The translations under genes were made by a program, and so were the position numbers. Below, piece after piece: positions 1,042 through 61,484 of a stretch of 64,000 nucleotides of DNA. Numbering within the stretch: the first letter of the stretch is position 1; each line of letters opens with the position of its first letter. The stretch comes from Pseudomonadota bacterium. GTDB lineage: Bacteria > Pseudomonadota > Alphaproteobacteria > Caulobacterales > Hyphomonadaceae. The notes under the pieces are model-generated. The model saw only the letters and a list, made by a program, of their open reading frames with translations. It had not been told where the DNA came from and did no database searches. The stretch lies in NCBI GenBank assembly GCA_039818185.1, contig JBCBUI010000016.1, positions 2,158 through 66,157 of the forward strand, written 5' to 3'.

Positions 1042-2589
1042 GTGATGAAACCTGTTCAGCAGATTCAAATCGTCTGGTTCAAACGCGACCTTCGGATAGA
1101 AGACCATGCCGCCTTAAGCGCCGCCGCCAAGCGCGGGCCGGTACTGCCCCTCTTCTTTGCGGAGCCGTCGCTCTGGCAAGGTCCCGACCAATCGGCGCGG
1201 CAATGGTCGTTCGTCGCTGAATGCTTGATGGACCTTCGCCGCGACCTTGGCGCGCTCGGTCAACCGCTCGTGATCAGAACTGGTGATGCAATAGAGGTGC
1301 TCGAACGCGCCCGGTGCCATTTTCAAAACGTCCAGCTCTGGTCGCATGAGGAGACTGGAAATGGTTGGACCTACGCGCGAGATCTTCGGGTCGCGGATTG
1401 GTGTCGACAGAACGGGGTCGAGTGGCATGAATTGCGCCAGAATGGCGTGATCCGACGTCTTAAGACCCGAAATGGCTGGGCGAAACGTTGGGATGCTTTC
1501 ATGGCAGAGCCTGCGCATGATACACCGCGCGCGCTGGCCTCCATAGATGGAATTGAGCCGGGTGAGATCCCGACAGCAGAAGAGCTAGGTTTGGGAACCG
1601 ATCCATGCCCGGGTCGCCAGACCGGCGGGCGCCAAGCCGGTCTGGAGTATCTTTACTCTTTCCTACACGTCCGCGGGGCCCCTTACCGGCGCGCAATGTC
1701 AGGACCCGTCACTGGCGCCAAACATTGCTCGCGTTTATCGCCTTATCTCGCCTGGGGCGCTGTTTCGATGCGTGAAGTCGCTCAGGCCACGTGGAGCCGT
1801 CAACGAGCCTTGAAAGCTGAGGGCACGAAAGGCGGCTGGCGCGGATCGTTGGCATCCTATCAGGGCCGATTGCATTGGCGAGATCACTTCACTCAGAAGC
1901 TTGAAGACGAGCCGAACATCGAGACTCAGAATTTGCACCGCGCCTATGATGGCTTGCGTCCCACAATGCCAGATCAAACTTCTTTTGAGGCTTGGGCAGC
2001 AGGTGAGACCGGCCTGCCATTCGTTGATGCTTGCATGCGCTGTCTCTGCGCGACAGGTTGGATGAATTTCCGGATGCGGGCGATGCTGATGGCCGTAGCG
2101 AGCTATCATCTCTGGCTCGATTGGCGCCGGCCGGGAGAACACTTGGCGCGCCTGTTCACCGATTACGAGCCTGGCATTCATTGGCCGCAAGTACAGATGC
2201 AGTCTGGTACCACAGGCATCAATACGATCCGCATTTATAATCCGGTAAAGCAAGGCCGTGACCAGGATCCAGATGGCGCGTTTGTTCGCCGCTGGGTACC
2301 CGAGCTCGCAGACGTGCCCTCAGATTTCATCCACGAACCCTGGACGTGGGGTGAAGCGAGCCGCGTGCTCGGGAAAACCTATCCGATGCCGATCATTGAT
2401 CATTTGCAAGCGGCGAAAGAGGCGCGGCAAAAGGTTTGGGCTGTCCGAAAGGGACAAACCTTCCGCCAGGATGCAAATTCGATCCAGGACAAGCATGGCA
2501 GTCGCAAAGCCGGGATTCCCAATCGTGGTCAGCGCAAACGCGTTAAGCCGTCGACCGACCAACTCCAACTTCCGCTCGGAGACACTTGA
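1042..2589 (+). CDS. Photolyase/cryptochrome family flavoprotein (full length, N-terminal alpha/beta domain plus FAD-binding domain)
   Basis: 515-aa ORF. N-terminus IVWFKRDLRIEDHAAL matches the photolyase alpha/beta domain start. C-terminal block TGLPFVDACMRCLCATGWMNFRMRAM...IYNPVKQGRDQDPDGAFVRRWVPEL is a divergent form of the TGxPxxDAxMRQLxxTGWMHNRxRM...NP FAD-domain signature. Subclass not assignable by eye. Confidence 0.8.
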   Translation: MMKPVQQIQIVWFKRDLRIEDHAALSAAAKRGPVLPLFFAEPSLWQGPDQSARQWSFVAECLMDLRRDLGALGQPLVIRTGDAIEVLERARCHFQNVQLWSHEETGNGWTYARDLRVADWCRQNGVEWHELRQNGVIRRLKTRNGWAKRWDAFMAEPAHDTPRALASIDGIEPGEIPTAEELGLGTDPCPGRQTGGRQAGLEYLYSFLHVRGAPYRRAMSGPVTGAKHCSRLSPYLAWGAVSMREVAQATWSRQRALKAEGTKGGWRGSLASYQGRLHWRDHFTQKLEDEPNIETQNLHRAYDGLRPTMPDQTSFEAWAAGETGLPFVDACMRCLCATGWMNFRMRAMLMAVASYHLWLDWRRPGEHLARLFTDYEPGIHWPQVQMQSGTTGINTIRIYNPVKQGRDQDPDGAFVRRWVPELADVPSDFIHEPWTWGEASRVLGKTYPMPIIDHLQAAKEARQKVWAVRKGQTFRQDANSIQDKHGSRKAGIPNRGQRKRVKPSTDQLQLPLGDT

Positions 2590-2591
2590 CC

Positions 2592-3779
2592 ATGCGCCAA
2601 ACCACGCTCGATCTCAAACCTGGGGCACCGCTTTCGGCCTGGACCGCGACGCGCTCCGAGGCGCTTGCGCGATTGACAAGGTTCGGGGCATCGGCTGGCG
2701 GCTCTTATGCCCGCCAGCGGAACTTTGATTTTGGCCCAGGTAAGCACGCGAAAGTCTCGCAATTATCACCTTGGATCCGGCATCGTTTACTGTTGGAGGA
2801 AGACGTACTGCGCGCGGTGTTGCGCGGGCATGATCTTAATCAGGCCGAAAAATTCATTCAGGAAGTCTTTTGGCGCGGCTATTTCAAGGGATGGTTGCAG
2901 CATAGACCAGACGTTTGGCGAAACTATAAGCAGGACTTGGTGCATCAATTTGATCAGCTTGAGCGTGACGCTGACCTGGCCCGTCGATACGATGAAGCAA
3001 TTGAGGGTCGAACAGGATTAGACTGTTTTGACAGCTGGACTCGCGAGCTGATCGAAACCGGGTATTTGCACAATCATGCCCGCATGTGGTTTGCCAGCAT
3101 TTGGATTTACACATTGCGTCTGCCCTGGCAGCTCGGCGCTGACTTTTTCTATCGGCATCTGGTCGATGGAGATCCCGCGTCGAACACGTGCTCCTGGCGC
3201 TGGGTTTGTGGTTTACATACGATGGGTAAGACCTATCTCGCGCGGGCGTCCAATATCGAGAAATTCACTGTAGGGCGGTTCAATCCGGTCGGTGAGCTCG
3301 CGACAATTGCGCCCGCTTTGGACGAGCCTCACAACATTCAAATCATCACGCCTGACGTCGCCACAGCTGATATTGCTGGGCGGCGGGTGGGTCTTGTTCT
3401 GACCGAAGAAGATGGGTGCGTTGAAACTTTGGGTTTGCAGCACCCGGTCAGCATGCTCGCGCTTTCGGGCCCGACTCAGCGATCGATCCGTCCGCTCGGC
3501 GCCATCGCTTCTGCATTTGGGCCAAGTGCTGTGCGGGACACTTCGGCACGCGCTGAGGTGTATTTTGAGGTGCCGGTCATGGACTATTCCGGCTCAGATT
3601 GGGAGGAAGCCGTGCGAGGCTGGGCGGGCGAAAATAGTTTGGATGCGTGTATTACGGCGCGCTTGCCGCAGGGACCCGTGCGAAAACGCCTGACCCAAGC
3701 CTGCCGCAGCGCGGATATCGAATTGCTACAGATCACGCGACCTTATGAACAAGCGGTTTGGCCGGTGCTGTCAGTCTAA
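2592..3779 (+). CDS. Photolyase-homology (FAD-binding helical domain only) protein with uncharacterised C-terminal extension
   Basis: The ORF 2586-3779 opens at TTG 2586; ATG 2592 lies 2 nt after the upstream stop. EKFIQEVFWRGYF, TGYLHNHARMWFASIW and DGDPASNTCSWRWVCG resemble photolyase FAD-domain blocks. No N-terminal alpha/beta domain. The last ~150 aa are unassigned. Confidence 0.65.
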   Translation: MRQTTLDLKPGAPLSAWTATRSEALARLTRFGASAGGSYARQRNFDFGPGKHAKVSQLSPWIRHRLLLEEDVLRAVLRGHDLNQAEKFIQEVFWRGYFKGWLQHRPDVWRNYKQDLVHQFDQLERDADLARRYDEAIEGRTGLDCFDSWTRELIETGYLHNHARMWFASIWIYTLRLPWQLGADFFYRHLVDGDPASNTCSWRWVCGLHTMGKTYLARASNIEKFTVGRFNPVGELATIAPALDEPHNIQIITPDVATADIAGRRVGLVLTEEDGCVETLGLQHPVSMLALSGPTQRSIRPLGAIASAFGPSAVRDTSARAEVYFEVPVMDYSGSDWEEAVRGWAGENSLDACITARLPQGPVRKRLTQACRSADIELLQITRPYEQAVWPVLSV

Positions 3780-4608
3780 TGCGAACCCGTCTCCAGCATC
3801 GGACGGGGTAGGGGCTCTTATCCAGCCAGAAGCTGACGCCATTCGGAGAGGGCGGCGTTTCTCATCGATTTGAATGTGGAGCGGTGGTTGATGTGGCGGT
3901 CTAAGTTGAAGTGATTATGGAACGAGGCGTGGGTCGAAGCGAATTTCTGTAGATTTGACATCCGCCTGAACCTGGACATCGCTCGCTCTCGCCTTCGAAG
4001 GGGCAAATGGCTGTTCTCCGCTCTGTTGTTGAGGTGACGACCGACCTCCTGGCGGTCGACTATTCCAATCTCTTTCATCGCGGCCCCATAGGATCGAAGC
4101 CGATCCGTGATGACCGTTCTCGGCGATCCGTATCGCTTCATGGCTTTCTTCAAAAACGTAAGTGCAGCCTGCTTATCTCGGGTTTTGGTGACATAGCTTT
4201 CGAGGATTTCACCTTCATGGTCGACGGCGCGCCACAGATAGTGTTGCACGCCGTTGATCTTCACGAAGACCTCATCGAGATACCATTGCCATTGAGTGTG
4301 CTGGCGCATGTAAGATGCCCGTTTCGTTCGGATCTTGCTAGCGAAGACCGGACCAAACCGATCGACCCAAGTCCGGACGCTTTCATGGCAGATATCTATC
4401 CCGCGCTCGTGCAGGAGGTCTTCTACATTTCTCAGAGACAGAGGAAATCGAACGTACATCATCACTGCAAGCTGGATAATTTCTGGCGATGTTTTGAAGT
4501 AGCGAAATGGGTTCTTGGTCATAAACCCACGCTAGAGTAGGTCGGTTAAAGCTCACTTTCCACTGACAATTCCCGACAAATTGTTTCTCGATAATTTGCA
4601 ACGAATTC
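3720..4608 (-). mobile_element. IS6-family insertion sequence; right-hand end supported, left-hand end tentative
   Basis: At 4595-4608 the + strand reads TTTGCAACGAATTC. This is the inverted form of the GTTGCAAA core found in IS6-family terminal inverted repeats. The only partial mate I can see on the other side is GAATTGCTACAGA at 3720-3732, a weak match. The resulting ~889 bp size fits the family. Confidence 0.4.
3818..4522 (-). CDS. IS6-family (IS26/IS6100-like) DDE transposase
   Basis: 234-aa ORF, the typical IS6 Tnp length. Motifs WYLDEVFVKINGVQHYLWRAVDHEGEILE, ITDRLRSY and NNRAENSHLPLRRRERAM match the conserved IS6 transposase core as I recall it. Confidence 0.9.
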   Translation of the reverse strand: MTKNPFRYFKTSPEIIQLAVMMYVRFPLSLRNVEDLLHERGIDICHESVRTWVDRFGPVFASKIRTKRASYMRQHTQWQWYLDEVFVKINGVQHYLWRAVDHEGEILESYVTKTRDKQAALTFLKKAMKRYGSPRTVITDRLRSYGAAMKEIGIVDRQEVGRHLNNRAENSHLPLRRRERAMSRFRRMSNLQKFASTHASFHNHFNLDRHINHRSTFKSMRNAALSEWRQLLAG

Positions 4609-4667
4609 TGGATACTAACCCCTTGAGAGATAGGGTGAGTACGGACGAATTTCCTTATATGTCATAA

Positions 4668-5588
4668 ATGTGTCATAATTATTGGATGATGCACGGACCC
4701 TTGTCGCGTACACCTTGTTCAAAGACCGTATTCACCCGGCTAATCGCGGTCTGGTGCGTCGTCGCGCTGCAGCCCGCGCACGCGTCTGAACAGGAAACGC
4801 TCGCCTTGCTTGAAAGTGAGCGCAATTGGCCCATCACGCACATCACTGTTAACGGTCAATCCAGTCGAGCCTTGCTGGACACAGGCGCGACAATCGCGCT
4901 GATCGATGATGATTTGCTGGCTTATGATGGTTCTAAGGATCCGGCCTATGCGACACGCGTCCGGGGGATAGGCGGTGACCGCGTCCTCCCCGTCGTGCAA
5001 CTCGCATCGGTTCGAACCGGGGCGCAGGTCTGGCATGATCTGCGCGTCGCCGTGAACACTGTGGATGCCTATCCGGTCTCCGAAAATATTTTGCCGGTCT
5101 CGCTTTTCTCGACATCGGTGGTCGATTTCGATTTCGCCAATGACACCGTCACACTTTATGACGGCCGCCCGAAACGGGTACCAGGCGCCGAGCGTAACTC
5201 AATTGGTTATTTCGACCATGATGGGCTCATCTTCATTGATGTCAGCATTAATGGTACTCGCGGCCATGCCTTAATCGACACTGGGTCGACCATCACCTTC
5301 ATCAACTCGCAATTCGCTGAACGCGCGAAAGGCGTGCAACGCGTACAGGAACCACAGGAGATTCGCGGCAGCGATTTGAACCGAAACGAAGTACAAGTGT
5401 TCAAGTTCAGAAAGATGCAACTTGGCGAAAAGCGGATCTCAAATTTCAGCATACCGGTGCTCGAGACGGACTTGTTTGCAGCGCTGGGATTTGGCGACGC
5501 GCCGATGATGGTGATCGGAATGGACTTGCTGTCTCACTACCGATTGCAAATAGATCGAAAGCGCAAACAGATTATCTTGGTGCGCTGA
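4668..5588 (+). CDS. Secreted two-lobed retropepsin-like aspartic protease
   Basis: 306-aa ORF with an N-terminal signal-like segment (LIAVWCVVALQPAHA). Two aspartic-protease active-site motifs lie ~135 aa apart (LLDTGATIALID and LIDTGSTITFIN). Confidence 0.7.
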   Translation: MCHNYWMMHGPLSRTPCSKTVFTRLIAVWCVVALQPAHASEQETLALLESERNWPITHITVNGQSSRALLDTGATIALIDDDLLAYDGSKDPAYATRVRGIGGDRVLPVVQLASVRTGAQVWHDLRVAVNTVDAYPVSENILPVSLFSTSVVDFDFANDTVTLYDGRPKRVPGAERNSIGYFDHDGLIFIDVSINGTRGHALIDTGSTITFINSQFAERAKGVQRVQEPQEIRGSDLNRNEVQVFKFRKMQLGEKRISNFSIPVLETDLFAALGFGDAPMMVIGMDLLSHYRLQIDRKRKQIILVR

Positions 5589-5751
5589 TAGAAATCGTCT
5601 CCAGCAGTCGATACAATAAATGCCAACTTCGTCATGGTTTCACATAATAAGTATAAAAGAGAGCTGTCAGTTTTTCGCGACGGATCAGGCTGGGCAATAC
5701 GTTCAATTTCCAGCTGCCGACATCATAGCAGAACAATAGAAAACGCCTCCC

Positions 5752-8118
5752 ATGACCTTTTGCTCGAAGTCTCTCTTTTTCAGCGCTGGCGCGCTCTTCA
5801 TTCCGACCAATGCGATCGCTCAAGAAGATCTTCTCTTACAGGATACGATTGTCATCGAAGGAAATCGATCAAATCCGATGTTGGCCGATATCGAACCGGA
5901 CATAGAGTTGGATTTTGCGGAAATTCGCTCATATGGCGCCGCCAGTCTGGAAGAACTCTTGGCCGATCTGGAGCCGCTTACAGAGTCTTCCGGTGGCGGC
6001 GCGCCGGCGATCTTGCTGAATGGTCGTCGTGTTTCCGGATTTCGGGAAATTCGAAACTATCCGCCCGAAGCCTTGGCGCGGGTCGAAGTTCTGCCCGAAG
6101 CTGCGGCGTTGAAGTTTGGCTTTCGCGCGAACCAGAAAGTTATCAACTTCATTTTACGCAACCGCTTCCACGCAGTGACCACGCGCGCGGATATTGGGGC
6201 GCCGACGGAAGGCGGCCAGTGGCTTGACGATGTTGACTTGTCGACACTGAGAATTCGCGATGATCAGCGTTGGAATGTCGATTTTGAGTATGAGTATCAA
6301 GACGCTCTATTTGAATCGGACAGGGATATTATCGGCGCTGATCCGAACGTCACAGCCGATCGGACATTGCTGCCAGAGCAGCATTCCGTCGACCTCACGG
6401 CAAGCCTCAGTCACTTTTTGCCGGGTGACATCAATGCCACATATGTGGGGGGCATTGATGCGGTCCAACGGAACCGTCAGATCGCGCAATCAGACCTGAA
6501 TGACACGCTGGCCCGCGACACGGATGAGATCGGCGCCGAAGCGCGATTTGTCCTCAACAAAGTCTATACCGATTGGAATTGGACGCTGAATGGTGGCTAC
6601 ACCTACCGAGACTCCGAGACAGCAACGGAGACTGATCCTTTGTCAGGGTTTCAGGAAAGCACAGAATCGACACGACACGATGCCATTCTTGAGGGCGTTC
6701 TGTTCAGCAAGTTGTTAGCCATGCCCGCGGGCGATGTGGTGTCGACGTTCAAGCTGGGCGCGGACGTTTCCGATCTGGAGACGCGATCCGATCAAAACGG
6801 CGTTTCTGAACCGACCAATTTGTCACGTACTCAAACCAATGTTCAAGCAAATATCGACATTCCGATACTCGACGCTCAACCCGACATTCACCCATTTGGG
6901 ACTTTAAACCTGAATGCGAATGGGCGTTTGGATGACGTTTCGGATGTCGGAACCTTGTCTTCTTATGGCGTCGGAATGACGTGGAAACCATTTGACCAGC
7001 TTCAGATACTCGCCTCGACGGCCTATACCGAAACAGCACCGGACCTTACGCTGCTCGGTGCACCGACATCGATTACGGAAACCGCCCGCGTGTTTGATTT
7101 TTCGACTGGAGAAACAGTTGAAAATGTGACGCGGATCTCAGGTGGGACTCCAAACCTCAATTCTGAGGAACGCACTGTCCATCGCCTCAACCTGAACTGG
7201 GAGCCATTTGAAACGCCGGATATCACATTCAATTTGGCCTATACGGACACCCAGGTCCAAGATGCGATCCTCAATTTTCCAGGCCTAACACCCCAGATCG
7301 AAGCGGCGTTTCCGGACCGCGTTCTGCGAGACGGAGATGGAACGCTTGTGCGCCTCGACGCGCGGGCGATCAATATTGATCAGTCGACAACACGACAGGT
7401 TCGATACGGGTTGAACTGGTCGCACAGTTTACCTCGGCCAGAGCGCCCGGATTTGTCTGATGAGGAGCGGCGGCAATTGCGCGAGATTGTCTTAAGGCGA
7501 CTGGACGAGGAAGATCGGGCGCGCGTGCAACAACGAATTGCAGAACGCGAATCGCGCCAAGCGGCCGGGCAGGGGCGCGGCGCGCGAGCCGGACAAGGCC
7601 GAGGTCGCGGACCACGCGGTGGGCGCGGCGGTCGAGGGTATGGGCGTGTCTTCGCGTCTCTGTATCATACGATCGTCTTAGAGGATTCTCTGCAAATCAC
7701 GCCTGGAAGCGCAGAATTGGATTTGCTGGATGGCGATGCGATTAGTGATCAAGGCGGGTCGGCTGAGCATCGACTCACCGCGCAAGTTGGGTATTCAAAA
7801 GGCGCGATAGGGGGCTTTATGCGGGGCAATTGGCGCAGCGAAACCCTGTTTGATGATGGCGCGAACGGGCAACTCAAATTCGATGATCTCGCGACGTTTG
7901 ACCTGCGGCTGCAATACAATTTCGGGAACAATCCGAGGCTGCTGCTAAAGTACCCGATGTTGGACAGCACCCGCCTTGCCCTCTCGATCGATAATGTTTT
8001 CGATGAAAAACAACGCGTCACGGACGCGAATGGCCTGGTACCGATTACCTACCAAGCCGATCTTTTGGATCCGCAAGGGCGTGTTGTGATGTTGCGGTTT
8101 CGCAAGTTGTTTTACTAA
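5752..8118 (+). CDS. TonB-dependent outer-membrane receptor with an Arg/Gly-rich insertion
   Basis: 788-aa ORF with a signal peptide ending AIAQE and a plug-like N-terminus (DTIVIEGNR, ILLNGRRVSG, VEVLPEAAALKFG). C-terminal beta-barrel ending in aromatic ...LRFRKLFY. The insert at 7432-7647 is listed separately. Confidence 0.85.
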   Translation: MTFCSKSLFFSAGALFIPTNAIAQEDLLLQDTIVIEGNRSNPMLADIEPDIELDFAEIRSYGAASLEELLADLEPLTESSGGGAPAILLNGRRVSGFREIRNYPPEALARVEVLPEAAALKFGFRANQKVINFILRNRFHAVTTRADIGAPTEGGQWLDDVDLSTLRIRDDQRWNVDFEYEYQDALFESDRDIIGADPNVTADRTLLPEQHSVDLTASLSHFLPGDINATYVGGIDAVQRNRQIAQSDLNDTLARDTDEIGAEARFVLNKVYTDWNWTLNGGYTYRDSETATETDPLSGFQESTESTRHDAILEGVLFSKLLAMPAGDVVSTFKLGADVSDLETRSDQNGVSEPTNLSRTQTNVQANIDIPILDAQPDIHPFGTLNLNANGRLDDVSDVGTLSSYGVGMTWKPFDQLQILASTAYTETAPDLTLLGAPTSITETARVFDFSTGETVENVTRISGGTPNLNSEERTVHRLNLNWEPFETPDITFNLAYTDTQVQDAILNFPGLTPQIEAAFPDRVLRDGDGTLVRLDARAINIDQSTTRQVRYGLNWSHSLPRPERPDLSDEERRQLREIVLRRLDEEDRARVQQRIAERESRQAAGQGRGARAGQGRGRGPRGGRGGRGYGRVFASLYHTIVLEDSLQITPGSAELDLLDGDAISDQGGSAEHRLTAQVGYSKGAIGGFMRGNWRSETLFDDGANGQLKFDDLATFDLRLQYNFGNNPRLLLKYPMLDSTRLALSIDNVFDEKQRVTDANGLVPITYQADLLDPQGRVVMLRFRKLFY

Positions 8119-8132
8119 TCCGATCGACAAAA

Positions 8133-8160
8133 AAGCGCCCGACCGGTCGGCCGGGCGCTT
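8133..8160. terminator. GC-rich stem-loop between convergent receptor genes
   Basis: AAGCGCCCG (8133-8141) pairs with CGGGCGCTT (8152-8160). An A-run on the + strand just before the stem gives a T-run after it for the minus-strand transcript. The T-tract for the + strand is weaker. Confidence 0.5.
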
Positions 8161-8182
8161 CGATATTTGTGTGTGTTGAGCC

Positions 8183-11100
8183 TTAGTATGACACCCGGAC
8201 CCCTGCGAGCACAGAGCGACCGAAGCCTTCCACCTCATAGACCCGAGACGTGTTGCCATTATAGCGACGGCCAAACTCATCGGTCAGGTTGTTGGCATCC
8301 AGGAAGTACGTGATGTTCTCATTCTGAGCGTAGCGGAAAGAGAAGTCGAGCGATGGACGCTCATCCCAGAAACGGTCCAGACGTTCATCGCCGAGATCAA
8401 TTGCATTCAGCCATGGCGAACGGTACTGATACGTCAACCGTGTCGATACACCGTACTTTTCGAAAAAGACAGATACGTTGTAGGTTTCGTCAGAAGCGCC
8501 AGCCAAGCCTGATTCTCGCGAGGTTCCGTCGTCATCCACCGGCGTCTGGGCGGAGTCTTCAGACTGGGTGTAGTTTAAGCTCGCACCAAAACCATCCCAG
8601 GGTTCCGGCAAGAAGCCGAACTGCTGAGAGTAGTTCAATTCGAAACCAGTGATTTCAGCATCGGAGCCATTCTGTGGACCACTCAGACGAACGGTCGAGC
8701 CTGGTCCAAACCCGAATTCTTCGCCATTGAAGGTTCGTGTGACGCCGAAAATCGGGTCGTCAATATCTTTGTAGAAAACTCCAGCGCTTAAAATCCCACG
8801 ATAGGGCAGGTACCATTCTGCGTAAGCGTCAATTGAGCGCGAGCGGAATGGCTCAAGGTCAGGGTTGCCGCCACTAATGAAGATGAGTCCATCACCTTCG
8901 CCATCGATATCTGAGTCTTCATCAATTTCGCGGCGTGGAGCGAGGTCATCAAAAGCCGGACGGTTGATACTCTCCGTATAGGCCAAGCGGAAAACCAGGT
9001 CTTCACGAGGGCGGTAATTGAAATGAATGGATGGGAAGAAATCGATATAGTCGTCCGAAGCGGTGATCTGAGTGACCAAACCGCTATCATAGAGTTCATC
9101 TAGCGTGACGCCTCGGTCGCGACCTGCTTCCAGGAAATCTTCCAGGTCGTCATTGGCAACAGCGGAGTTTGCCGTTGCGTCCCATTCGGTTTGTTCCAAA
9201 CGCCCTCCGACGATTATGTCGAAGTTGTCAAAGCGGAACGTATTCATCAAATAAGCGGCATAAATATTCTCTTCAAACTCATAGAAGTTTTCCCAGATAT
9301 TGCCTTGGGTGAGGATCAGATTGTTTGCGCGCGCGGCTGCGAAAACCTCGTCACGGCCATTGAACGAGCGATCTTCACCAAACTCAAACATGGCAGGTTG
9401 GGGGAAAGTCGCGCGCGACAAATTACCCGTGAGGATGTTCGCATAATCGGTGTTTACGAAATCGTTGATATCATCTCCGACCTCGAGATCCGTATCATCC
9501 AAAGTGCCTTCAGAAAGTGCCGCGCGAGCACCGAACTTCAAATCCGAAGTAATCCCAAATGGCTGCCACGGATACTCGATATCAAACTGACCGAAATACT
9601 GTTCGACCACTTCCTCGGTATCTGAAATCTCCAAATTCTCGAAGACAAACTTCGAAATTGGTGGTCCAGGAAGGCGGTCGCCCAACGTATAACCCTCTGG
9701 GTTGCTCGCAGAAATCGCATTTGGATCAATGACCGTATCATACACTTCAACGATCGGAGCGTCGGGAACCGTATAGTCATAAGTGACTGAGATGCCATCG
9801 TCGCCATTATTGATGTCATATTCCCAATAGGCGCTATCTGGTTCGCGCGCATTAATGGTTTCATTGAAACCTGCTGACCATTCAAGGCTGAAACGATCGA
9901 AGTCGCTTTCGCCGCCAATCTGCGTGTTGAAGATCGATTCAATATCTTCGCGCATATTGAATGTCGCATCCAATTCGACGCCATAGACGGTGCCCCTGAC
10001 GGGAGTGTTTCCGATGGCTACACCGCCAATGATCGGATCATCGTCATCGATGTCGCCGTACTCAGCATCGTCCAAATCATAGATATGTTGATCGCGTTGT
10101 TCAAAGTCCGAGAATTCGGAGAAGACTGTGTTCCAAAAGAAGGAGTGGTTGTCATTCGGACGGAAGTCGAAGCGCAAATTGCCGGAGGTATTTTGGCGCT
10201 CGAGCCGATAAAGACGGAAATCTGCTTGGTTCGGGAAGATTGTGCCATCGACATCCTCGAACCGGTTTTCGGTGTTGTCCGTGATTTTGTTGTCGTGGAA
10301 GAAACTGCCGGATGCCAGGACACCGAGCTTTCCATCGAAGAAGACATTGGAAACGGTCAGCTGAGAGTTGAAAAGCTCGCCGCCACCAAGTTCTTTCACA
10401 CCTAATGCAAGTTCGGCGTCTACGGACAAGCCTTCGCCCTTGTCGAAGGCGCCGGATGTTTCGATGTTGATGAAACCACCGATAGAGTCAGCCGGGAGGT
10501 CCGGCGTGATCGCTTTTACAACTTCAATCGATCCGATCACATCGTTCGGAATGGTGTCAAACCGTGCGCTTCCGTTACCGGCGGAGGGTATTGCAACTCC
10601 ATTGAAAGCGATCGTAGAGAATCCGGCTGGTGCACCGCGGACATTGACGAAGCGGGCTTGACCCTGGTCGCGTTCGATCGAGATACCAGGAACCCGGCCG
10701 AGCGCGTCAGCCGCGTTCCGGTCTGGGAAGCGACCGATAGAGTCAGATGCGACAATGTTGGAAACATTGTCATTATTCTTCTGGCGAGACAGCGCAGCTG
10801 CTTCTGAGTCCGCGATTGGCGTGCCGACGACCATGATCGTGTCCTGCACCAGATCGGTTCCGAGACGGACTAATCCAATTTCGATGACTTCCGTCTGCCC
10901 AGCAGCGATTGTTACTGTCTGTGTGACTTCGGTCCGTCCAACATAATTGATTGTGACTTCATGTGTTCCAGCAGGTACGCGACGAAGCGCGAAACGGCCT
11001 TCTGAATCTGTTTCCGTGGTCAGGTTAAGCGCCGGAATTTCGACCGCCGCACCGCGTAAGAACGTGCCTTGAGCAGCGTCGGTGACCACACCGTCCAGAC

Positions 11101-46154: not shown

Positions 46155-46601
46155 CTAAAAGTCTAGCGGATCTAGCGGGACATCGTGCCCAGATCGAATG
46201 AGCTCGAGGAAGCGGTCTACTTTTTCCCTTTCCTGCTTTGTCAGATTGAGACCTTCTTCACCGCCATCGAATGAAAATACGATCTTGGTTGTTCGCTCGC
46301 TTCGGTCTTCAAGCAGGTCAGGCGTTAGCCGTTCCATTTCCCGCAACAGTCTGATCTGGTCGCTGGTTTTCCCGTGAAGTGCGTTTTCGATGAGTTTGTG
46401 CACAAAGGCTTCGTGCACCGTGATGCTGCGCCGTTCGCCGTTTTCTGAGACGATCATCTTCCGGTTCATCCCATTTCGAAGCGTTCTCGCGAAGTTCTTG
46501 GATCCTTTCGGCCGTCCTTTCGTGTTGCCCGATTGACCTTTCTTAAACTGGCTATGCCTCGGCGGTTTGCCATATCCAACTTCGTAATCTTGATCAGACA
46601 T
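46155..46601 (-). CDS. DUF5681-like protein (phage/plasmid-associated)
   Basis: ORF 46155-46634; Met12 (46601) is the likelier start. The N-terminal block GYGKPPRHSQFKKGQSGNTKGRPKGSKN is the signature I associate with DUF5681. Immediately downstream of, and overlapping, the ParB-methyltransferase gene. Confidence 0.6.
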   Translation of the reverse strand: MSDQDYEVGYGKPPRHSQFKKGQSGNTKGRPKGSKNFARTLRNGMNRKMIVSENGERRSITVHEAFVHKLIENALHGKTSDQIRLLREMERLTPDLLEDRSERTTKIVFSFDGGEEGLNLTKQEREKVDRFLELIRSGHDVPLDPLDF

Positions 46602-47895
46602 TGCTTGCTTCCTTCTCTTTTTCGATTTCATCAAAACTCTGCTCCCAAACGGAGTGCTTCGCGGGCTGACCGGTTGAGTCTTGGAACCTTCGGATGATCA
46701 CATCGATGTACTTCGGGTCGAGCTCAATGCAGGCGGCTTTGCGGCCCGTCTGTTCGGCTGCCAATAGCGTAGAACCGGACCCCGCAAATGGATCAAGCAC
46801 CCATTCACCGCGCGCGGTCACGTCCATGATCGCATCTGCCATCATGCCGACCGGTTTAACTGTCGGATGCAGCTTCAGCTCATCCCGGCGCGCTTGCACA
46901 CCGGTATAGTCCCAGACATTGGTTCGGTTGCGGCCATGCTTGCCGAGCTCGATATTATTGCGGTGGCGCGCGCCAGGCTTTCGAAAGACAGGGATCAATT
47001 CATGCTGCGAACGATAGAGGCTGCCCATGCCGCCCGTCATCTTGTTCCAGACACAAAGATTGAGAAGCTCACCTAATCCCAGTTCGCCGGCTTGGATCAG
47101 GTCCCGGATGTGGCGCCAATCCATGCAGACGAATGACACTGCGCCAGGCATCAAGTGATTTCCTGACTGCTGGCAGAACGTCTCGAGGAAAGCGCAAAAC
47201 TCTTCGTCCGACATTTCGCCCGAGGCCATCATAAATTCGCTATGCTTGATCTTGCCTTTGCCGCAGACATGGCCGTCCACTTTCACATTATAAGGTGGGT
47301 CGGTGAACATGGCGGCAGCGAGTTGATCGAAAAGAACCGCTTCATAGCTTTCCGCCTTGAGGGCATCGCCGCAATAAAGACGGTGATTACCCAGAACCCA
47401 CAAATCTCCAGGCTCGCTGATGGCAGGCCCAGGATCAGGCAGCGGGGCAGGGGGCTCGTCAGCTTCCTCATCGCACGCCAAGATCAAATCAATCTCAGAG
47501 GTCTCAAACCCGATCGCACCGATGTCGAAATCAAGCTCCATCTCGCTTAACGCGCCGAGCTCTATCTTAAGCAGGTCATCATCCCAGCCGGCGTTTTCTG
47601 CGAGTTTGTTATCGGCAAGGATGTAAGCGCGCTTCTGCGCCGCGCTCAGGCCGGAAAGCTCAATCACCGGAACTTCTGAGAGTCCAAGCTGCTTTGCAGC
47701 CATCCAGCGACCATGTCCCGCAACAATGCCATTGCCCTCGTCTATAAGGATGGGGTTGGTCCAGCCGAAAGCCGTTATGCTGGAAGCGATCTGCTCGATC
47801 TGCTTTCGCGAGTGTGTACGTGCATTGCCAGCATATGGCCTCAGCGCGTCAGTTGGGACTTTGTTGACCTGAAGGTCACGGATCGTATTGGGCAT
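46594..47895 (-). CDS. ParB/Srx-like nuclease domain fused to an N6-A/N4-C DNA methyltransferase
   Basis: 433 aa. The N-terminal ParB-like block is LRPYAGNARTHSRKQIEQIASSITAFGWTNPILID...IVAGHGR. The MTase domain carries DPPYN (motif IV) and C-terminal DPFAGSGSTLLAAE (motif I), i.e. the beta-class order. Confidence 0.88.
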   Translation of the reverse strand: MPNTIRDLQVNKVPTDALRPYAGNARTHSRKQIEQIASSITAFGWTNPILIDEGNGIVAGHGRWMAAKQLGLSEVPVIELSGLSAAQKRAYILADNKLAENAGWDDDLLKIELGALSEMELDFDIGAIGFETSEIDLILACDEEADEPPAPLPDPGPAISEPGDLWVLGNHRLYCGDALKAESYEAVLFDQLAAAMFTDPPYNVKVDGHVCGKGKIKHSEFMMASGEMSDEEFCAFLETFCQQSGNHLMPGAVSFVCMDWRHIRDLIQAGELGLGELLNLCVWNKMTGGMGSLYRSQHELIPVFRKPGARHRNNIELGKHGRNRTNVWDYTGVQARRDELKLHPTVKPVGMMADAIMDVTARGEWVLDPFAGSGSTLLAAEQTGRKAACIELDPKYIDVIIRRFQDSTGQPAKHSVWEQSFDEIEKEKEASNV

Positions 47896-51136: not shown

Positions 51137-51161
51137 GTCCGCTTTCGGCGTCAAAGCGGAC
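51137..51161. repeat. Hairpin repeat copy 1 (GTCCGCTTT-cggcgtc-AAAGCGGAC)
   Basis: Perfect 9-bp stem with a 7-nt loop. Intergenic, upstream of the TIR gene. Confidence 0.9.
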
Positions 51162-51291
51162 GTTGGAATGCGACGCTGAGTAGCTGCCATAAGCAATAAT
51201 GCTCGTTTGTTAGCAACTCAACTTGCTGCCCCAGCGACTTGAATTGATCCTGGTAATGTAGTGTTTGAGTTGGATAACTGAGTGAGGTTGA

Positions 51292-52962
51292 GTGTTGGTG
51301 CCTACTTCCGAAAGACTGAAGGTTTTTATCTCGTACTCGCGAGCCCAAGTCGGGTTTGCGGATGAGCTAGAATTGGCATTATCGGACAAGCAGCATGAGG
51401 TTCTGATCGACCGTCACTCGATCGCCAAAGGCGAAGCGTTCAAGCAGCGTCTCGGAGAAATGATTCTCGCGTGCGATACGGTGGTGTTCATTTTATCGGA
51501 CGAGTCTGCGACCTCGCAAATCTGTGCTTGGGAAATATCAGAAGCCGCCAGATTGTTAAAACGGGTATTGGTGGTCACAATAGCTGATCTTTCGGATGGC
51601 GTCGTGGTTCCCCAGGCGCTCGCGAGCATTGATTGGATACACTGTTGGAATAACCCCAAAGTACCAGGCTCGAACCAGACAAAAGGGTTCATCGAGCTTG
51701 ATCGGGCGCTACGAACTGACTTGGCATGGTTGCGTGAGCGAACAAGATTGCAAGAACAAGCTGTCCGTTGGGCGGGTCGCTCCGACGATCTGAATAGAGA
51801 GTCTTCCCTTCTGCGCGCTGAACTCTTGTCCGAGGCGATCGATTGGCAGGCCAGCAAACCTGTCCATGAGTCGATTCCGGACATAGTTCTCGATTTTCTC
51901 TCATCCAGCCGCGACGCTGAAGAACGCCGACGATCTGAGGAAGCCGCAAATCTGGCAGAGCGTGAATCAATTATTGAACAGTCCCGAGTCGCGATGGAAG
52001 AGCGTGAGGTCGCGTTGAAACGACTTTCGCGAAGAAGTGTGATGGGAGTAGGCGTGGCGGGAGCGCTTACTGCTGGAGCAAGTGGACTAGCGCTATGGGC
52101 GAACGATGCAGAGAACCGATTCAGACGCGCGCAAACCGCTGCCGCATTGGCACGAGAACAGGCAATAGAGGACAGTATCACTGAGCAAGCACTTAACACT
52201 AATATTTCGGGTCAAATAACGGCGTATGCGTCTTCTCCCGGTGTAATCGCTTCGGATGGTCCACCTGGCGAAAACTCCCCTTATACGAAAGCCGTGCTGA
52301 CGGCTTTGGGTAATCCCAATCAGTCTTTGCTAGGAGGGTTGCTGGAAGCGCACGATCGTATTCGTTCCGATTTTCCCCAGCAGCCATATCTGTCGACAAA
52401 CGTAGATGCAGACGTTTTCATGAAGCGGTTGCCGGTCAGTTGGAAACGGCGCGCGCTATGCATCTCAAATTCGAGTCTTTTTGGAGAGAAAGAGATGCTG
52501 CCAAACACAGAGCGCGACGCTGATGCATGGAGCGACTTTCTCCAAGAGTGCGGCTTTGAGGTCAGAGCGCATTCGAATCTAACGTTAGCTCAATTGCATG
52601 AACAGATAGATTGGCTCTTCTCTCACTTGATACCACAATCTGATGACGCTGGTCTCAACTTAACAAACGAACGCGTCGATCCAGCAGGTTTTGTGTTTTT
52701 GTTTTATGCGGGTGTTGGGTATGTAGATGGACAAAGACAAGCTCTAGAGGTTGCAAACACTATTGGCTTTGCGAGTGAAAGCCGCGCCATCAACGTGCTG
52801 CCCTTAGACCCCTTGTTAGAGAGAATGCGAAAGCTCGCAGGTTTATCGGTTGCGGTGCTGGATACAAACTTCAATCCGATAAGCCTGTCGCATGAGGGAT
52901 GGGGTACAGAGCTTAATGAGATGCCGGCAGTGGACACTTTTGAACCTATTTTGACGCGTTAG
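51292..52962 (+). CDS. TIR-domain protein with coiled coil, predicted TM helix and a C-terminal degenerate caspase-like region
   Basis: 556 aa; GTG/TTG/GTG starts at 51292-51298 follow a GAGG. TIR blocks VFISYSR, VVFILSDES and SQICAWEISEA. Hydrophobic aa 249-270. Peptidase-C14-like blocks ITAYASSPGVIASDG..GENSPYTKAVL (aa 309-336), then RRALCISNSS...FLFYAGVGY...AVLDTN (aa 386-526). Confidence 0.8.
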   Translation: MLVPTSERLKVFISYSRAQVGFADELELALSDKQHEVLIDRHSIAKGEAFKQRLGEMILACDTVVFILSDESATSQICAWEISEAARLLKRVLVVTIADLSDGVVVPQALASIDWIHCWNNPKVPGSNQTKGFIELDRALRTDLAWLRERTRLQEQAVRWAGRSDDLNRESSLLRAELLSEAIDWQASKPVHESIPDIVLDFLSSSRDAEERRRSEEAANLAERESIIEQSRVAMEEREVALKRLSRRSVMGVGVAGALTAGASGLALWANDAENRFRRAQTAAALAREQAIEDSITEQALNTNISGQITAYASSPGVIASDGPPGENSPYTKAVLTALGNPNQSLLGGLLEAHDRIRSDFPQQPYLSTNVDADVFMKRLPVSWKRRALCISNSSLFGEKEMLPNTERDADAWSDFLQECGFEVRAHSNLTLAQLHEQIDWLFSHLIPQSDDAGLNLTNERVDPAGFVFLFYAGVGYVDGQRQALEVANTIGFASESRAINVLPLDPLLERMRKLAGLSVAVLDTNFNPISLSHEGWGTELNEMPAVDTFEPILTR

Positions 52963-53016: not shown

Positions 53017-53041
53017 GTCCGCTTTCGGCGTCAAAGCGGAC
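53017..53041. repeat. Hairpin repeat copy 2 (core identical to copy 1)
   Basis: GTCCGCTTTCGGCGTCAAAGCGGAC, 25/25 identical to copy 1. Lies between the convergent TIR and GDPD genes. Confidence 0.9.
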
Positions 53042-54285: not shown

Positions 54286-54310
54286 GTCTGCTTTCGGTGT
54301 CATAGCAGAC
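54286..54310. repeat. Hairpin repeat copy 3 (GTCTGCTTT-cggtgtc-ATAGCAGAC), with an extra outer inverted repeat
   Basis: Variant stem carrying compensatory changes (GTCTGC/GCAGAC). The outer arms CTCGCTTA (54262-54269) and TAAGCGAG (54312-54319) are also complementary. Confidence 0.8.
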
Positions 54311-56557: not shown

Positions 56558-56582
56558 GTTCGCCTTTTGACCCAAAGCGGAC
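56558..56582. repeat. Hairpin repeat copy 4 (degenerate left arm)
   Basis: GTTCGCCTTTTGACCCAAAGCGGAC. The right arm is intact; the left arm has 2 substitutions. Confidence 0.7.
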
Positions 56583-57023: not shown

Positions 57024-57051
57024 ATGTCCGCTTTTGACCCAAAACGGACAT
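57024..57051. repeat. Hairpin repeat copy 5 (ATGTCCGCTTTT-gaccc-AAAACGGACAT)
   Basis: Imperfect 12-bp stem. Its translation produces the spurious ORF 57006-57206 (MSAFDPKRTS). Confidence 0.85.
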
Positions 57052-58690: not shown

Positions 58691-58718
58691 ATGTCCGCTT
58701 ATGACCCAAAGCGGACGT
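58691..58718. repeat. Hairpin repeat copy 6 (ATGTCCGCTT-atgaccca-AAGCGGACGT)
   Basis: Arms GTCCGCTT (58693-58700) and AAGCGGAC (58709-58716) are fully complementary. Flanks gaATGTCCGC...GCGGACGTT are shared with copy 1. Confidence 0.85.
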
Positions 58719-59126: not shown

Positions 59127-59518
59127 TGCTGGATGTGAACACTCTACAGAGCGCCGGTCGAAAGGACTTGAAGTCTTCATGGAAAGACTCGTTCGGCATC
59201 GCGCCGTCACCGGGGCTAAGTTCCCAGATGATGCGCCGGATCTTGATCTGTGAAGCGCAATGGCAGGCAACCAATCGGTCGCGATCTCTATTTCGGCAAT
59301 CGCTTCAGCAGATGTTGGAGAGCAAGGAAAAACCCAAACCCATCGCAAAAGAAGGCGCCCGCCTTGTGCGTGAGTGGAATGGCGAGGAGCATGTCGTCGA
59401 CGTGCTGGAAGAAGGCTATCTCTGGCGAGACAAGACGTGGACTTCACTCAGCGCCATTGCGCGGGAAATCACTGGTACACGTTGGTCAGGACCGCGCTTC
59501 TTTGGCGTCAGCGCGTGA
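59123..59518 (+). CDS. DUF2924-like protein
   Basis: 131 aa; overlaps both neighbours. REWNGEEHVVDVLEEGYLWRDKTWTSLSAIAREITGTRWSGPRFFGV matches the DUF2924 C-terminal signature as I recall it. Confidence 0.7.
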   Translation: MMLDVNTLQSAGRKDLKSSWKDSFGIAPSPGLSSQMMRRILICEAQWQATNRSRSLFRQSLQQMLESKEKPKPIAKEGARLVREWNGEEHVVDVLEEGYLWRDKTWTSLSAIAREITGTRWSGPRFFGVSA

Positions 59519-61020
59519 CACGCATTCGATGCGCGATCTATACGCGCAAATCCTCAGACGAAGGGCTGGATCAAAGCTTTAATTCGCTGGACGCACAGAG
59601 AGAGGCTTGCAGCGCCTATATCAAGTCTCAGCGTCACGAAGGATGGCGAGAGCTGAAGGCCCATTATGATGACGGCGGACATTCAGGCGGTACAATTGAG
59701 CGTCCAGCTCTGAAGCGACTATTGGAAGAGGTTGATGCCGGTCGGATCAATATGGTGGTCGTCTACAAGATCGATCGACTTACCCGATCGCTTACAGACT
59801 TTGCCAAACTCGTCGATCGCTTGGATGAAGCCAATGCGTCTTTCGTCTCGGTTACACAGCAGTTTAATACATCGACCAGTATGGGGCGCCTCACCCTTAA
59901 TGTGCTTCTATCTTTTGCCCAGTTCGAACGAGAAGTCACAGCCGAGCGCATTCGCGACAAGATCGCTGCGTCCAAGAAGAAGGGCATGTGGATGGGCGGG
60001 TTGGTGCCGCTCGGCTATGACAAGTCCGATACCGGACTCATCATCAATCGGAATGAAGCTGAGATCGTCCGAACGGCGTTTCAATCCTATCTCGAAGTCG
60101 GTTGCGTTCGACGCCTCAAAGAGCACTTCGATGCAGCTGGATGGTACACGAAGACAAGGACGCTGAAAGATGGGCGGCTGATCTCTGGAAAGCCATTCTC
60201 TCGCGGGCGGCTTTATCATCTGCTCTCTAACGCCATCTATATCGGCAAGATCCAACATAAAGATAAGCTTTATGACGGTCGGCATGAGGCGATCATAGAT
60301 GACGAGCTTTGGACTTCGGTTCAGCAAAAGCTTAAGTCAAATGCCGTCGCTCGAAAGTCGGGTCGCAATCACAAGAACCCGTCTCCGTTAGCTGGCAAAG
60401 TCTTTGACCAAAACGGAAATCCACTCACGCCCAATCACGCGAATAAAGCCGGTAAGCGATATCGATACTATGTCTACAGATCAGGCATGCGACTGCCAGC
60501 ATCCGAGATAGAGCAGGGAGTATTAGCTGCGCTTCACTCCGACCGAAACGTGACACTTTACTTTGAACAGAAAGTCGATCGATCTCCTACAGATACAGAG
60601 CTGTTTGAATCTGTCTCGCGGGTAGACGTCCAGCCCGGTCAGCTCAGCATCTCAATCCAATTGCACAGGGCGCGGACCGTGACAGCGCTTTTCACGCTTC
60701 GCCGACGGGGTGTTGAAAATCGAGTTGCGTTAAACCCAAACCCAGGCAGAGCGCCGGATTACAAACTCATCAAACGGGTCTTGGCAGCCATGTCTTGGAC
60801 CGACGGAATCAAAAGCGGAGCTTCGATTGCTGAAGTCGCAGCGGCTCAAAAGGTAAGCCCCGAATACATCACGCATAATATCGGTTTGGCGTTGCTATCG
60901 CCCAAGATTCTGCAGGCGATAATCGATGGCAAACAGCGATCGGATATCTCCGCATATCAGCTTTCGAAAGTTCAGATCCCGGCAACTTGGGAAGATCAAA
61001 ACCCGCTTTTCATGGCATAG
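59515..61020 (+). CDS. Large serine recombinase (resolvase/invertase N-domain plus recombinase domain)
   Basis: The ORF opens at 59374. The GTG at 59515 (GTGA overlap with the upstream stop) gives VTRIRCAIYTRKSSDEGLDQSFNSLDAQREAC with the catalytic Ser region. Followed by VVVYKIDRLTRSL, then the recombinase domain (GMWMGGLVPLGYD). Confidence 0.9.
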   Translation: MTRIRCAIYTRKSSDEGLDQSFNSLDAQREACSAYIKSQRHEGWRELKAHYDDGGHSGGTIERPALKRLLEEVDAGRINMVVVYKIDRLTRSLTDFAKLVDRLDEANASFVSVTQQFNTSTSMGRLTLNVLLSFAQFEREVTAERIRDKIAASKKKGMWMGGLVPLGYDKSDTGLIINRNEAEIVRTAFQSYLEVGCVRRLKEHFDAAGWYTKTRTLKDGRLISGKPFSRGRLYHLLSNAIYIGKIQHKDKLYDGRHEAIIDDELWTSVQQKLKSNAVARKSGRNHKNPSPLAGKVFDQNGNPLTPNHANKAGKRYRYYVYRSGMRLPASEIEQGVLAALHSDRNVTLYFEQKVDRSPTDTELFESVSRVDVQPGQLSISIQLHRARTVTALFTLRRRGVENRVALNPNPGRAPDYKLIKRVLAAMSWTDGIKSGASIAEVAAAQKVSPEYITHNIGLALLSPKILQAIIDGKQRSDISAYQLSKVQIPATWEDQNPLFMA

Positions 61021-61393: not shown

Positions 61394-61484
61394 TGGCGGA
61401 GAGGAAGGGATTCGAACCCTCGATACGCTTATCACGTATACTCCCTTAGCAGGGGAGCGCCTTCAGCCACTCGGCCACCTCTCC
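61394..61484 (-). tRNA. tRNA-Ser (anticodon GCU)
   Basis: The reverse complement folds as a class II tRNA. Acceptor GGAGAGG/CCUCUCC; anticodon stem CUCCC/GGGAG with loop CUGCUAA; long variable arm; T-arm GAGGG-UUCGAAU-CCCUU; encoded CCA. Confidence 0.95.

Follow-up and report, generated by a model that had tools for sequence, protein, structure and literature searches.

We analysed a 64-kb stretch of DNA from a contig (JBCBUI010000016.1) assigned to the family Hyphomonadaceae, which is hereafter called the window and whose positions are used throughout, and within it a single gene encoding a TIR protein with a caspase-like C-terminal domain. The gene lies at 51292..52962 on the forward strand, and all of its features given below are on this strand. 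The open reading frame (ORF) was confirmed exactly where an earlier, preliminary description of the same DNA had placed it, and it comprises 556 aa plus stop. It begins with GTG, with alternative starts at 51295 (TTG) and 51298 (GTG), and a GAGG Shine-Dalgarno-like motif at 51284-51287 is compatible with any of these three nearby starts. The 556-aa form has no database record under that start; the 554-aa NCBI entry “TIR domain-containing protein [Pseudomonadota bacterium],” derived from a metagenome-assembled genome, is the same protein with the start placed two codons downstream. From the N- to the C-terminus, the protein comprises a TIR domain, a Trp-rich helical linker, a long charged helix, a hydrophobic segment and a domain with the C14 (caspase) fold. 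The AlphaFold2 (AF2) model of the whole protein has a mean predicted local distance difference test score (pLDDT) of 80.2, with values of 80-97 in the part corresponding to the ectodomain.

The C-terminal domain matches Pfam Peptidase_C14 with 50.5 bits (cut-off 21.4), in two stretches: residues 271-383 correspond to profile positions 148-225 and residues 384-556 to positions 1-83 (profile length 233). The p10-like block (aa 303-377, 52198..52422, profile positions 148-225), with the elements beta5-alpha4-alpha5-beta6, comes first in the chain, and the p20-like block (aa 384-530, 52441..52881, profile positions 1-83), with beta1-alpha1-beta2-alpha2-beta3-alpha3-beta4, comes second. When the two blocks were joined in silico in the canonical order with a short linker, they matched the profile in one stretch (positions 1-225, 54.9 bits). 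In the same manner, the un-permuted family profile gave an hhalign alignment of 214 columns (probability 99.8, E=4e-28) with P0043-P0046, the nearest canonical relatives, whereas in the native order the alignment covered 75 columns of the p10 block alone (E=1.2e-14).

The structural models gave the same result. Both the full-length and the ectodomain-only AF2 models (the latter with a pLDDT of 82.7 and a predicted template modelling score, pTM, of 0.80) show a beta-alpha-alpha-beta unit followed by beta-alpha-beta-alpha-beta-alpha-beta, which is the caspase fold starting at beta5. Both were used as Foldseek queries against 350,542 chains of the PDB, and for both the top four chains were engineered circularly permuted caspase-2 (cpCasp2; 8vp4, 9c2y), with E about 1e-9, 256-271 aligned columns, a template modelling score (TM-score) of up to 0.70 on the target and a sequence identity of ~14%. 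The best canonical match, MALT1, was about a thousand-fold weaker and covered the p20 half alone (145 columns, root-mean-square deviation 1.9 A). All significant matches of the ectodomain model were caspase-fold proteins. In the viral structure library only giant-virus metacaspases were matched, over half of the domain, and no phage protein was found there. Sequence-only searches of the PDB with the C14 part yielded E=0.11 at best for the single protein and one weak match for the un-permuted profile; since these matches were too weak for residue mapping, the canonical bacterial relatives and hhalign were used instead. The swapped block order reported in the preliminary description thus passed three independent tests (profile mapping with un-permutation, profile-profile alignment and structure comparison), and the p10-before-p20 circular permutation is established as far as computation allows.

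The p10-before-p20 order defines the algal type III metacaspases (Choi & Berges, 2013; PMC3734836), and a census published in 2019 (Klemencic et al., PMC6426788) reported no type III arrangement in bacteria or archaea; nothing in the later literature that we searched alters this prokaryotic absence. The protein under study and the type III metacaspases are alike in being natural C14 proteins with the p10-type region ahead of the p20-type region. However, type III metacaspases are eukaryotic proteins of algae that arose by secondary endosymbiosis, are soluble and active, and carry the metacaspase p10 motif SGCxDxQTSADV, whereas the bacterial domain lies behind a transmembrane (TM) helix, mostly lacks the catalytic dyad and occurs in fusions with TIR or TIR-STAND modules. 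The sequence of its p10 block, AYASSPGVIASD, comes closest to that of canonical bacterial caspase-like proteins and lacks the type III motif. Because its nearest relatives are canonical secreted bacterial proteins, the permutation was probably acquired independently of the type III metacaspases. That the fold tolerates the swapped order has been demonstrated with engineered permuted (“reverse”) caspases (PMC7760212). The best structural match in the PDB, cpCasp2, likewise has the small subunit before the large one, but it is man-made and active, while the natural domain is predicted to be inactive and tethered to the membrane.

A profile search of 1.84 billion representative proteins returned 140 representatives at E<=1e-30, 84 of which match the whole permuted profile in one piece, so that the permuted domain occurs in at least 84 clusters. 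The nearest canonical relatives have the normal block order and N-terminal segments resembling signal peptides. Numerous profile matches are secreted and carry a tandem of canonical C14 domains, one of which has frequently lost His and Cys (P0100, P0111, P0115, P0120, P0127, P0145, P0150, P0155, and P0160 have the tandem arrangement), and two further proteins (P0141 and P0190) contain one canonical C14 domain followed by a permuted unit. On the tandem proteins, the permuted profile bridges the two domains directly, covering p10 of the leading one and p20 of the following one. Such forms are the intermediate expected for permutation by duplication, which is suggestive, not proven; secreted caspase-like proteins of Alphaproteobacteria, duplicated in tandem, are the probable source of the permuted domain. 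As a separate observation, the tandem proteins hint that canonical and permuted C14 domains may pair.

The catalytic His and Cys had been described as replaced by Val and Asn, and this was borne out by the alignment to the canonical relatives (YAGHG and LDAC): hhalign of the un-permuted family places Val475 (YAGVG; codon 52714..52716) on the catalytic His and Asn526 (LDTN; codon 52867..52869) on the catalytic Cys. A non-catalytic residue occupies both positions in all close full-length homologs, and among the 84 representatives the His is kept in 21% and the Cys in 6%. Three permuted proteins (P0096, P0123, and P0144) keep both residues (SGHA...D[AS]C) and, judged by this motif, could be active proteases; because of them, the permutation seems to be older than the loss of catalysis. 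A subclade (P0078, P0085, P0087, P0091, P0094, P0101, P0102, and P0108) has His at both dyad positions (FSGHG...LDTHF). Pseudo-variants of prokaryotic caspase homologs were recorded in the 2019 census only among orthocaspases, which have no p10 (PMC6426788). Like the protein studied here, pseudo-orthocaspases are prokaryotic C14 proteins with a substituted His/Cys dyad and are common in Alphaproteobacteria; they differ in their canonical order, the typical substitution by Tyr and Ser, and the lack of a link to TIR, and our protein has a p10-type block.

Three acidic residues of the domain are highly conserved among the 84 representatives: Asp322 (52255..52257; D or E in 89%), Asp409 (52516-52518; D in 94%), and Asp524 (52861-52863; D in 95%). 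By motif correspondence, we take them to be equivalent to D365, D462, and E500 of MALT1, which build up the acidic S1 pocket in caspase-fold proteases with specificity for Arg, and they are predicted to line a pocket of the S1 type. The retention of the acidic positions together with the loss of the dyad is what would be expected if a pseudo-enzyme had kept the ability to bind a ligand similar to a substrate.

The family composition also bears on the assumption that the permuted dead caspase serves not as a ligand sensor but as a docking partner of an active secreted caspase-like paralog, in a heterodimer like that of cFLIP formed through the caspase dimer interface, either regulating this paralog or reporting its activation to the TIR domain. 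Caspase-fold proteins are known to dimerize, and pseudo-caspases regulate active paralogs, as cFLIP does with caspase-8. The combination of canonical and permuted C14 domains in one chain in P0141 and P0190, the many tandem proteins with one dyad lost, and the position of canonical secreted proteins as the nearest sequence neighbours are all in line with such a role. However, no canonical C14 gene is present in the 64-kb window and none was seen beside the homologs in the ten genomic contexts compared below, and the retained pocket residues fit ligand or substrate binding at least equally well. We therefore consider a docking role distinctly improbable.

The N-terminal TIR domain (aa 9-121, 51316..51654), predicted to be cytoplasmic, matches Pfam TIR_2 (PF13676) at aa 11-121 with 62.3 bits, well above the curated cut-off of 28 (E=8e-17), in agreement with the preliminary description. 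The family TIR profile matched TLR1/2/6, SARM1, AbTIR, Cat1, TIR-STING, MyD88, and plant receptors in the PDB, with the TIR domains of TLR1/2/6 as the best sequence matches, and Foldseek matched the TIR part to the TIR domains of MyD88, SARM1, and SPARTA. Glu81 (GAA, 51532..51534) is equivalent to the catalytic Glu of TIR NADases: it is invariant in 18 of 18 diverse family members, nSTAND1 fusions included. In alignments, it coincides with the Glu of the S-x-W-C-x-x-E-L motif (SEWCHYEL in the TIR domains of TLRs) and with the catalytic Glu642 of SARM1 (WVHKEI), the latter in an alignment with the same score and range as the PDB match. The earlier placement of Glu81 in a W-x-x-E context holds with respect to the catalytic Glu but not to the motif, as the local sequence is C-A-W-E. 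Based on these alignments, the TIR domain probably degrades NAD.

At the level of known defence systems, the TIR domain is the only part of the protein with matches. The NCBIfam model ThcB4 matched the TIR part alone, at 42.8 bits where the cut-off is 220, and the PADLOC matches to ThsB were confined to the TIR region. The protein shares with Thoeris ThsB a TIR of the same family, but it has no ThsA-type partner nearby and its scores are far below the cut-offs; no ThsA-type gene (SIR2/SLOG or Macro) was found among its neighbours in the window. The statement that the architecture does not correspond to a named defence system agrees with these PADLOC and NCBIfam searches, which gave generic TIR-level matches only.

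The TIR domain is followed by a Trp-rich linker (aa 129-187, 51676..51852) that belongs to no Pfam family and is modelled by AF2 as four helices (pLDDT 81-90). Its invariant residues are L136, L140, D143, W146, R148, T151, L153, W160, L174, A182, and W185. The preliminary description had linked it to other bacterial TIR-STAND/WD40 proteins, and a phmmer search with the linker indeed found it in other fusions, namely in TIR-WD40, TIR-FGE, and TIR-trypsin relatives. A possible origin of the linker as a degraded nSTAND1 remnant was rejected, given the lack of any NTPase match in the protein and of any nSTAND1 likeness except in the TM region. Residues 197-249 (51880..52038) form a single long charged helix in the AF2 model (pLDDT about 81-94; 10 Arg and 10 Glu in 53 residues), which is a putative cytoplasmic stalk and ends in the invariant S246-R247-R248. 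Across 21 homologs the helix measures 46, 54, 60/61, 67, or 74 residues, in steps of ~7, or about one heptad. Of the coiled coil proposed for aa 208-246, what is supported is a long predicted helix whose length varies in such steps.

The stalk leads into a predicted N-in TM helix (aa 250-270, VMGVGVAGALTAGASGLALWA, 52039..52101), recognized by hydropathy, flanking charges, conservation, and comparison with relatives. It consists of 21 uncharged residues after KRLSRRS and contains the Kyte-Doolittle maximum of the protein; the equivalent segments of paralogous fusions also follow Arg or Lys and are strongly hydrophobic (1.9-2.4). The distance between SRR and the downstream DAExRF motif is 27 aa in all 21 homologs, and the uncharged character of the segment is conserved. 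The helix joining the TM segment to the ectodomain (aa 271-300, 52102..52191), which contains the conserved DAExRF motif, has a pLDDT above 90 in the ectodomain-only model, and its length is 32 aa in 19 of the 21 homologs. The fixed spacer and outer helix, together with the stalk varying by heptads, fit a rigid helical connection that is sensitive to register. TIR domains, like NTPase domains, depend on a cytoplasmic cofactor (NAD+ and ATP, respectively), and, owing to this need, to the properties of the segment and to the secretion of the canonical relatives, we infer an N-in/C-out topology, i.e., a single-pass type II protein. The TM helix with inner N-terminus suggested for aa 249-270 in the preliminary description is therefore retained as a prediction. 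In the subfamily combining TIR, linker, and permuted C14, the sequence L-S-R-R-S/T followed by a weakly hydrophobic stretch rich in Gly, Ala, and Thr (aa 245-270, 52024-52101) is invariant; it resembles a twin-arginine (Tat) signal, placed internally and not at the N-terminus, and could serve for the export of a pre-folded ectodomain.

Some properties of this segment would also suit a fully cytoplasmic protein whose hydrophobic segment does not span the membrane and whose pseudo-caspase acts as an intracellular sensor or an auto-inhibitor of the TIR domain, as in soluble TIR-sensor fusions. The segment is rich in Gly and Ala, its Kyte-Doolittle 19-mer mean of 1.65 is borderline, and its AF2 confidence is low (pLDDT 39-56); moreover, the trypsin and PAS fusions of the TIR-linker module have no TM helix at this place. 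Against this stand the invariant length of the uncharged segment between the conserved SRR and DAExRF, the strong hydrophobicity of the paralogous segments, the fact that the permuted C14 domain follows a hydrophobic segment in every occurrence examined, and the secretion of the nearest canonical relatives. A cytoplasmic location of the whole protein thus appears very improbable.

The module composed of TIR and linker is widespread. It was confirmed at more than 310 metagenome loci from soil, freshwater, and marine samples, with many different C-terminal parts: behind a TM helix, it is fused to beta-propeller/WD40, FGE-sulfatase, and other regions, and, without a TM helix, to trypsin-like and PAS domains. 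A single-protein scan of genome contigs yielded only TIR-linker relatives with other C-termini. One beta-propeller paralog has a split GmrSD gene in its vicinity. As for the permuted C14 domain, it forms the C-terminus of TIR-nSTAND1, DUF4062-nSTAND1, and nSTAND1 proteins, directly after a TM helix. In STAND-type proteins the sensor is C-terminal and the effector N-terminal, and TM-anchored or periplasmic putative sensors have been discussed (PMC10907252; PMC8195603). The pseudo-caspase is accordingly found in the sensor position twice over, in the TIR-linker fusions and at the C-termini of nSTAND1 proteins. A sensor/effector role is partly supported, in an indirect manner, by the interchangeable outside domains, the nSTAND1 C-termini, the signal peptides of relatives, and the retained acidic residues.

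In its general plan, the protein resembles the effector-STAND-sensor conflict proteins (PMC8195603; PMC10907252), which have an N-terminal TIR effector and a variable C-terminal sensor, sometimes outside the membrane. Unlike STAND or NLR-type proteins (nSTAND1, Avs-like), it has no central P-loop NTPase, although its paralogs have nSTAND1. Moreover, the sensors of STAND conflict systems are WD40, TPR, or C-type-lectin/FGE domains and their caspase domains are usually effectors, whereas here a permuted pseudo-caspase would be the sensor. Like TLRs, the protein would have its sensor outside and its TIR domain inside the cell, linked by a single TM helix; it differs in the N-terminal position of the TIR domain (a type II, inverted layout), in an ectodomain not built of leucine-rich repeats, and in a TIR domain expected to be an enzyme and not an adaptor scaffold. 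The design logic of effector-sensor fusions has thus been described before, and what is new is the fold of the sensor and the TLR-like, inverted membrane layout.

To place the gene in a wider context, ten neighbourhoods were compared: the window and nine loci with full-length homologs (L001, L008, L009, L010, L013, L014, L015, L020, and L021). The clearest defence context was that of L008, where the homolog P0018 is accompanied by SIR2 with a HerA-like ATPase, a restriction-modification system of the MmeI type, two transposases, and two integrases. In L010, the homolog is located directly downstream of a toxin pair of the ribbon-helix-helix and PIN types; L013 has it beside a resolvase, and L009 near a patatin gene. 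In L001, the homolog P0027 and a toxin-antitoxin pair are found inside the nusG-rplK cluster. The insertion there (2322-9848) comprises P0027, a DUF433/DUF5615 pair, a TetR gene, and a TonB-dependent receptor gene, all between nusG and rplK, a pattern suggestive of an accessory hotspot within the conserved secE-nusG-rplKA cluster. In both L014 and L015, an ORF of 294 aa overlaps the start of the gene; L014 also has a Ser/Thr kinase-TPR gene, and L015 has MaoC dehydratase and CoA-transferase genes. The 294-aa ORF (L014, 3875-4759; L015, 523-1407) reaches with its end 4 nt into the TIR-permuted-C14 gene, has no Pfam match, and could be a lineage-specific operon partner in these two similar soil loci. 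Ordinary metabolic genes surround the homologs in L020 and L021.

No neighbour is conserved across the ten loci, the 294-aa ORF being confined to the closely similar L014 and L015, and this suggests that the protein works as the product of a single gene. As the neighbourhoods are not shared, the gene behaves as a mobile, stand-alone unit. The expectation that homologs would lie in defence islands was met by one strong case (L008) and several weak ones, and two or three contexts were of the housekeeping kind. The association with defence genes is therefore mixed, being real in some of the ten contexts.

This mixed association is also relevant to a non-antiviral role for the same architecture, as a receptor for envelope stress, for kin/non-kin recognition, or for programmed cell death in bacteria with a “multicellular habit.” In that case a periplasmic cue, derived from the cell itself or from a competitor, would cause the TIR domain to make a signalling nucleotide or to deplete NAD+. 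The housekeeping neighbourhoods of L020 and L021 and the very wide distribution of the TIR-linker module, with its many C-terminal domains, speak for such a role, as does the placement of combinations of TIR, caspase, and STAND in a broader apoptosis-like and conflict network (PMC8195603). On the other hand, one homolog lies in a textbook defence island and several are located beside toxin-antitoxin or mobile genes, and no regulator or downstream signalling partner was present in any of the ten contexts. A non-antiviral receptor differs from an immune one solely in its trigger, which sequence cannot separate; we regard it as unlikely, though the strongest of the alternatives.

According to our analysis, the architecture is solid, and for the function the best-supported reading, to which we give about an even chance, is that this stand-alone, predicted single-pass membrane protein senses a signal outside the cell and passes it to its TIR effector, probably in immunity or conflict. 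The ectodomain would no longer cleave but would keep its acidic, substrate-type pocket, which may accommodate the basic group of a ligand met in the periplasm or envelope (candidates are peptides, muropeptides, and proteins of phages or competitors). Across the membrane, the helical stalk would respond to ligand binding with a change in packing or oligomeric state, by which the TIR domains could be gathered into an active assembly that degrades NAD+ or converts it into a signal. The expected outcome would be growth arrest or cell death, either as immunity of the abortive-infection type or as another conflict response.

Several points weigh against this proposal. Its immune function, NAD consumption, membrane topology, and ligand are inferred throughout. 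Two to three of the ten contexts are plainly metabolic (L020, L021, and partly L015), and an assignment to a named defence system was rejected because the PADLOC and NCBIfam matches were partial, at the TIR level, and far below thresholds. The residues of the pocket were mapped by motif correspondence with MALT1 and not by a residue-level superposition, and the conservation of Asp409 and Asp524 may be purely structural. The borderline hydropathy and low model confidence of the TM segment count in the same direction. Finally, the conserved Glu is also present in many TIR domains that are scaffolds and not enzymes, such as those of the TLRs, the best PDB sequence matches.

A bolder version, which we offer as a speculation of low probability, is that this is the first natural circular permutation of the caspase fold recognized in prokaryotes, turned into the non-catalytic periplasmic receptor of a TLR-style TIR protein that would sense a basic peptide or muropeptide, e.g., during phage entry or cell-wall attack, and trigger the destruction of NAD+. 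To our knowledge, almost all characterized bacterial immune sensors are cytoplasmic. If the proposal is correct, a single polypeptide would perform outside-in sensing in bacterial immunity, a sensor facing the periplasm would act at the envelope stage, and the protein would offer a simple model for the activation of TIR domains across a membrane. The classification of caspase homologs is widened in any case, with the p10-before-p20 order now present in a bacterial family of at least 84 clusters, mostly pseudo-enzymes, and the relatives with tandem domains illustrate a possible route to permutation by duplication. The family provides a natural counterpart to the engineered permuted caspases of biotechnology, and it would add to the examples of inactive proteases co-opted for binding, in parallel to the animal pseudo-caspases of the cFLIP type.

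The stretch around the gene has an accessory character and shows signs of an integrated island. A fusion of ParB_N and DNA methylase is encoded upstream on the reverse strand (46594-47895), and a gene for a large serine recombinase on the forward strand (59374-61020) adjoins tRNA-Ser(GCT) on the reverse strand (61394-61484). No repeat of the tRNA end, which would mark the far boundary of the island, was detected. Further neighbours in the window include MFS, AraC-type, DUF1761, GDPD, TetR, and SDR genes, and the 64 kb contain neither a second TIR gene nor, as mentioned above, a canonical C14 gene.

Two identical hairpins flank the gene: a 25-nt palindrome (GTCCGCTTTCGGCGTCAAAGCGGAC) upstream at 51137..51161 and an identical copy downstream at 53017..53041, the latter with a stable stem and no T-tract. 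The preliminary description placed the gene alone between these two repeats, and both exist and are identical; they do not form a gene-specific pair, as they belong to a family of six related palindromes of 24-25 nt (GTCCGCTTT-N6-7-AAAGCGGAC), the other members of which are located at 54286-54310, 56558-56582, 57026-57049, and 58693-58716. All six are intergenic and lie within 51.1-58.7 kb, and the remaining ~56 kb of the window contain none; the copies divide this stretch into small gene units of mixed orientation, and their conserved part is only ~30 nt. The palindromes are thus a local family resembling repetitive extragenic palindromes (REP), and no feature specific to the TIR gene. Their identification as integron attC or gene-specific att sites was rejected on account of six copies in 8 kb, the short conserved part of ~30 nt, the mixed gene orientation, the absence of IntI, and the serine type of the nearby recombinase, and that as intrinsic terminators on account of the missing T-tract.

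An antisense ORF of 261 aa (51414-52199, reverse strand) lies inside the region coding for the TIR domain and the linker; it is presumably a by-product of the composition of the sense gene.

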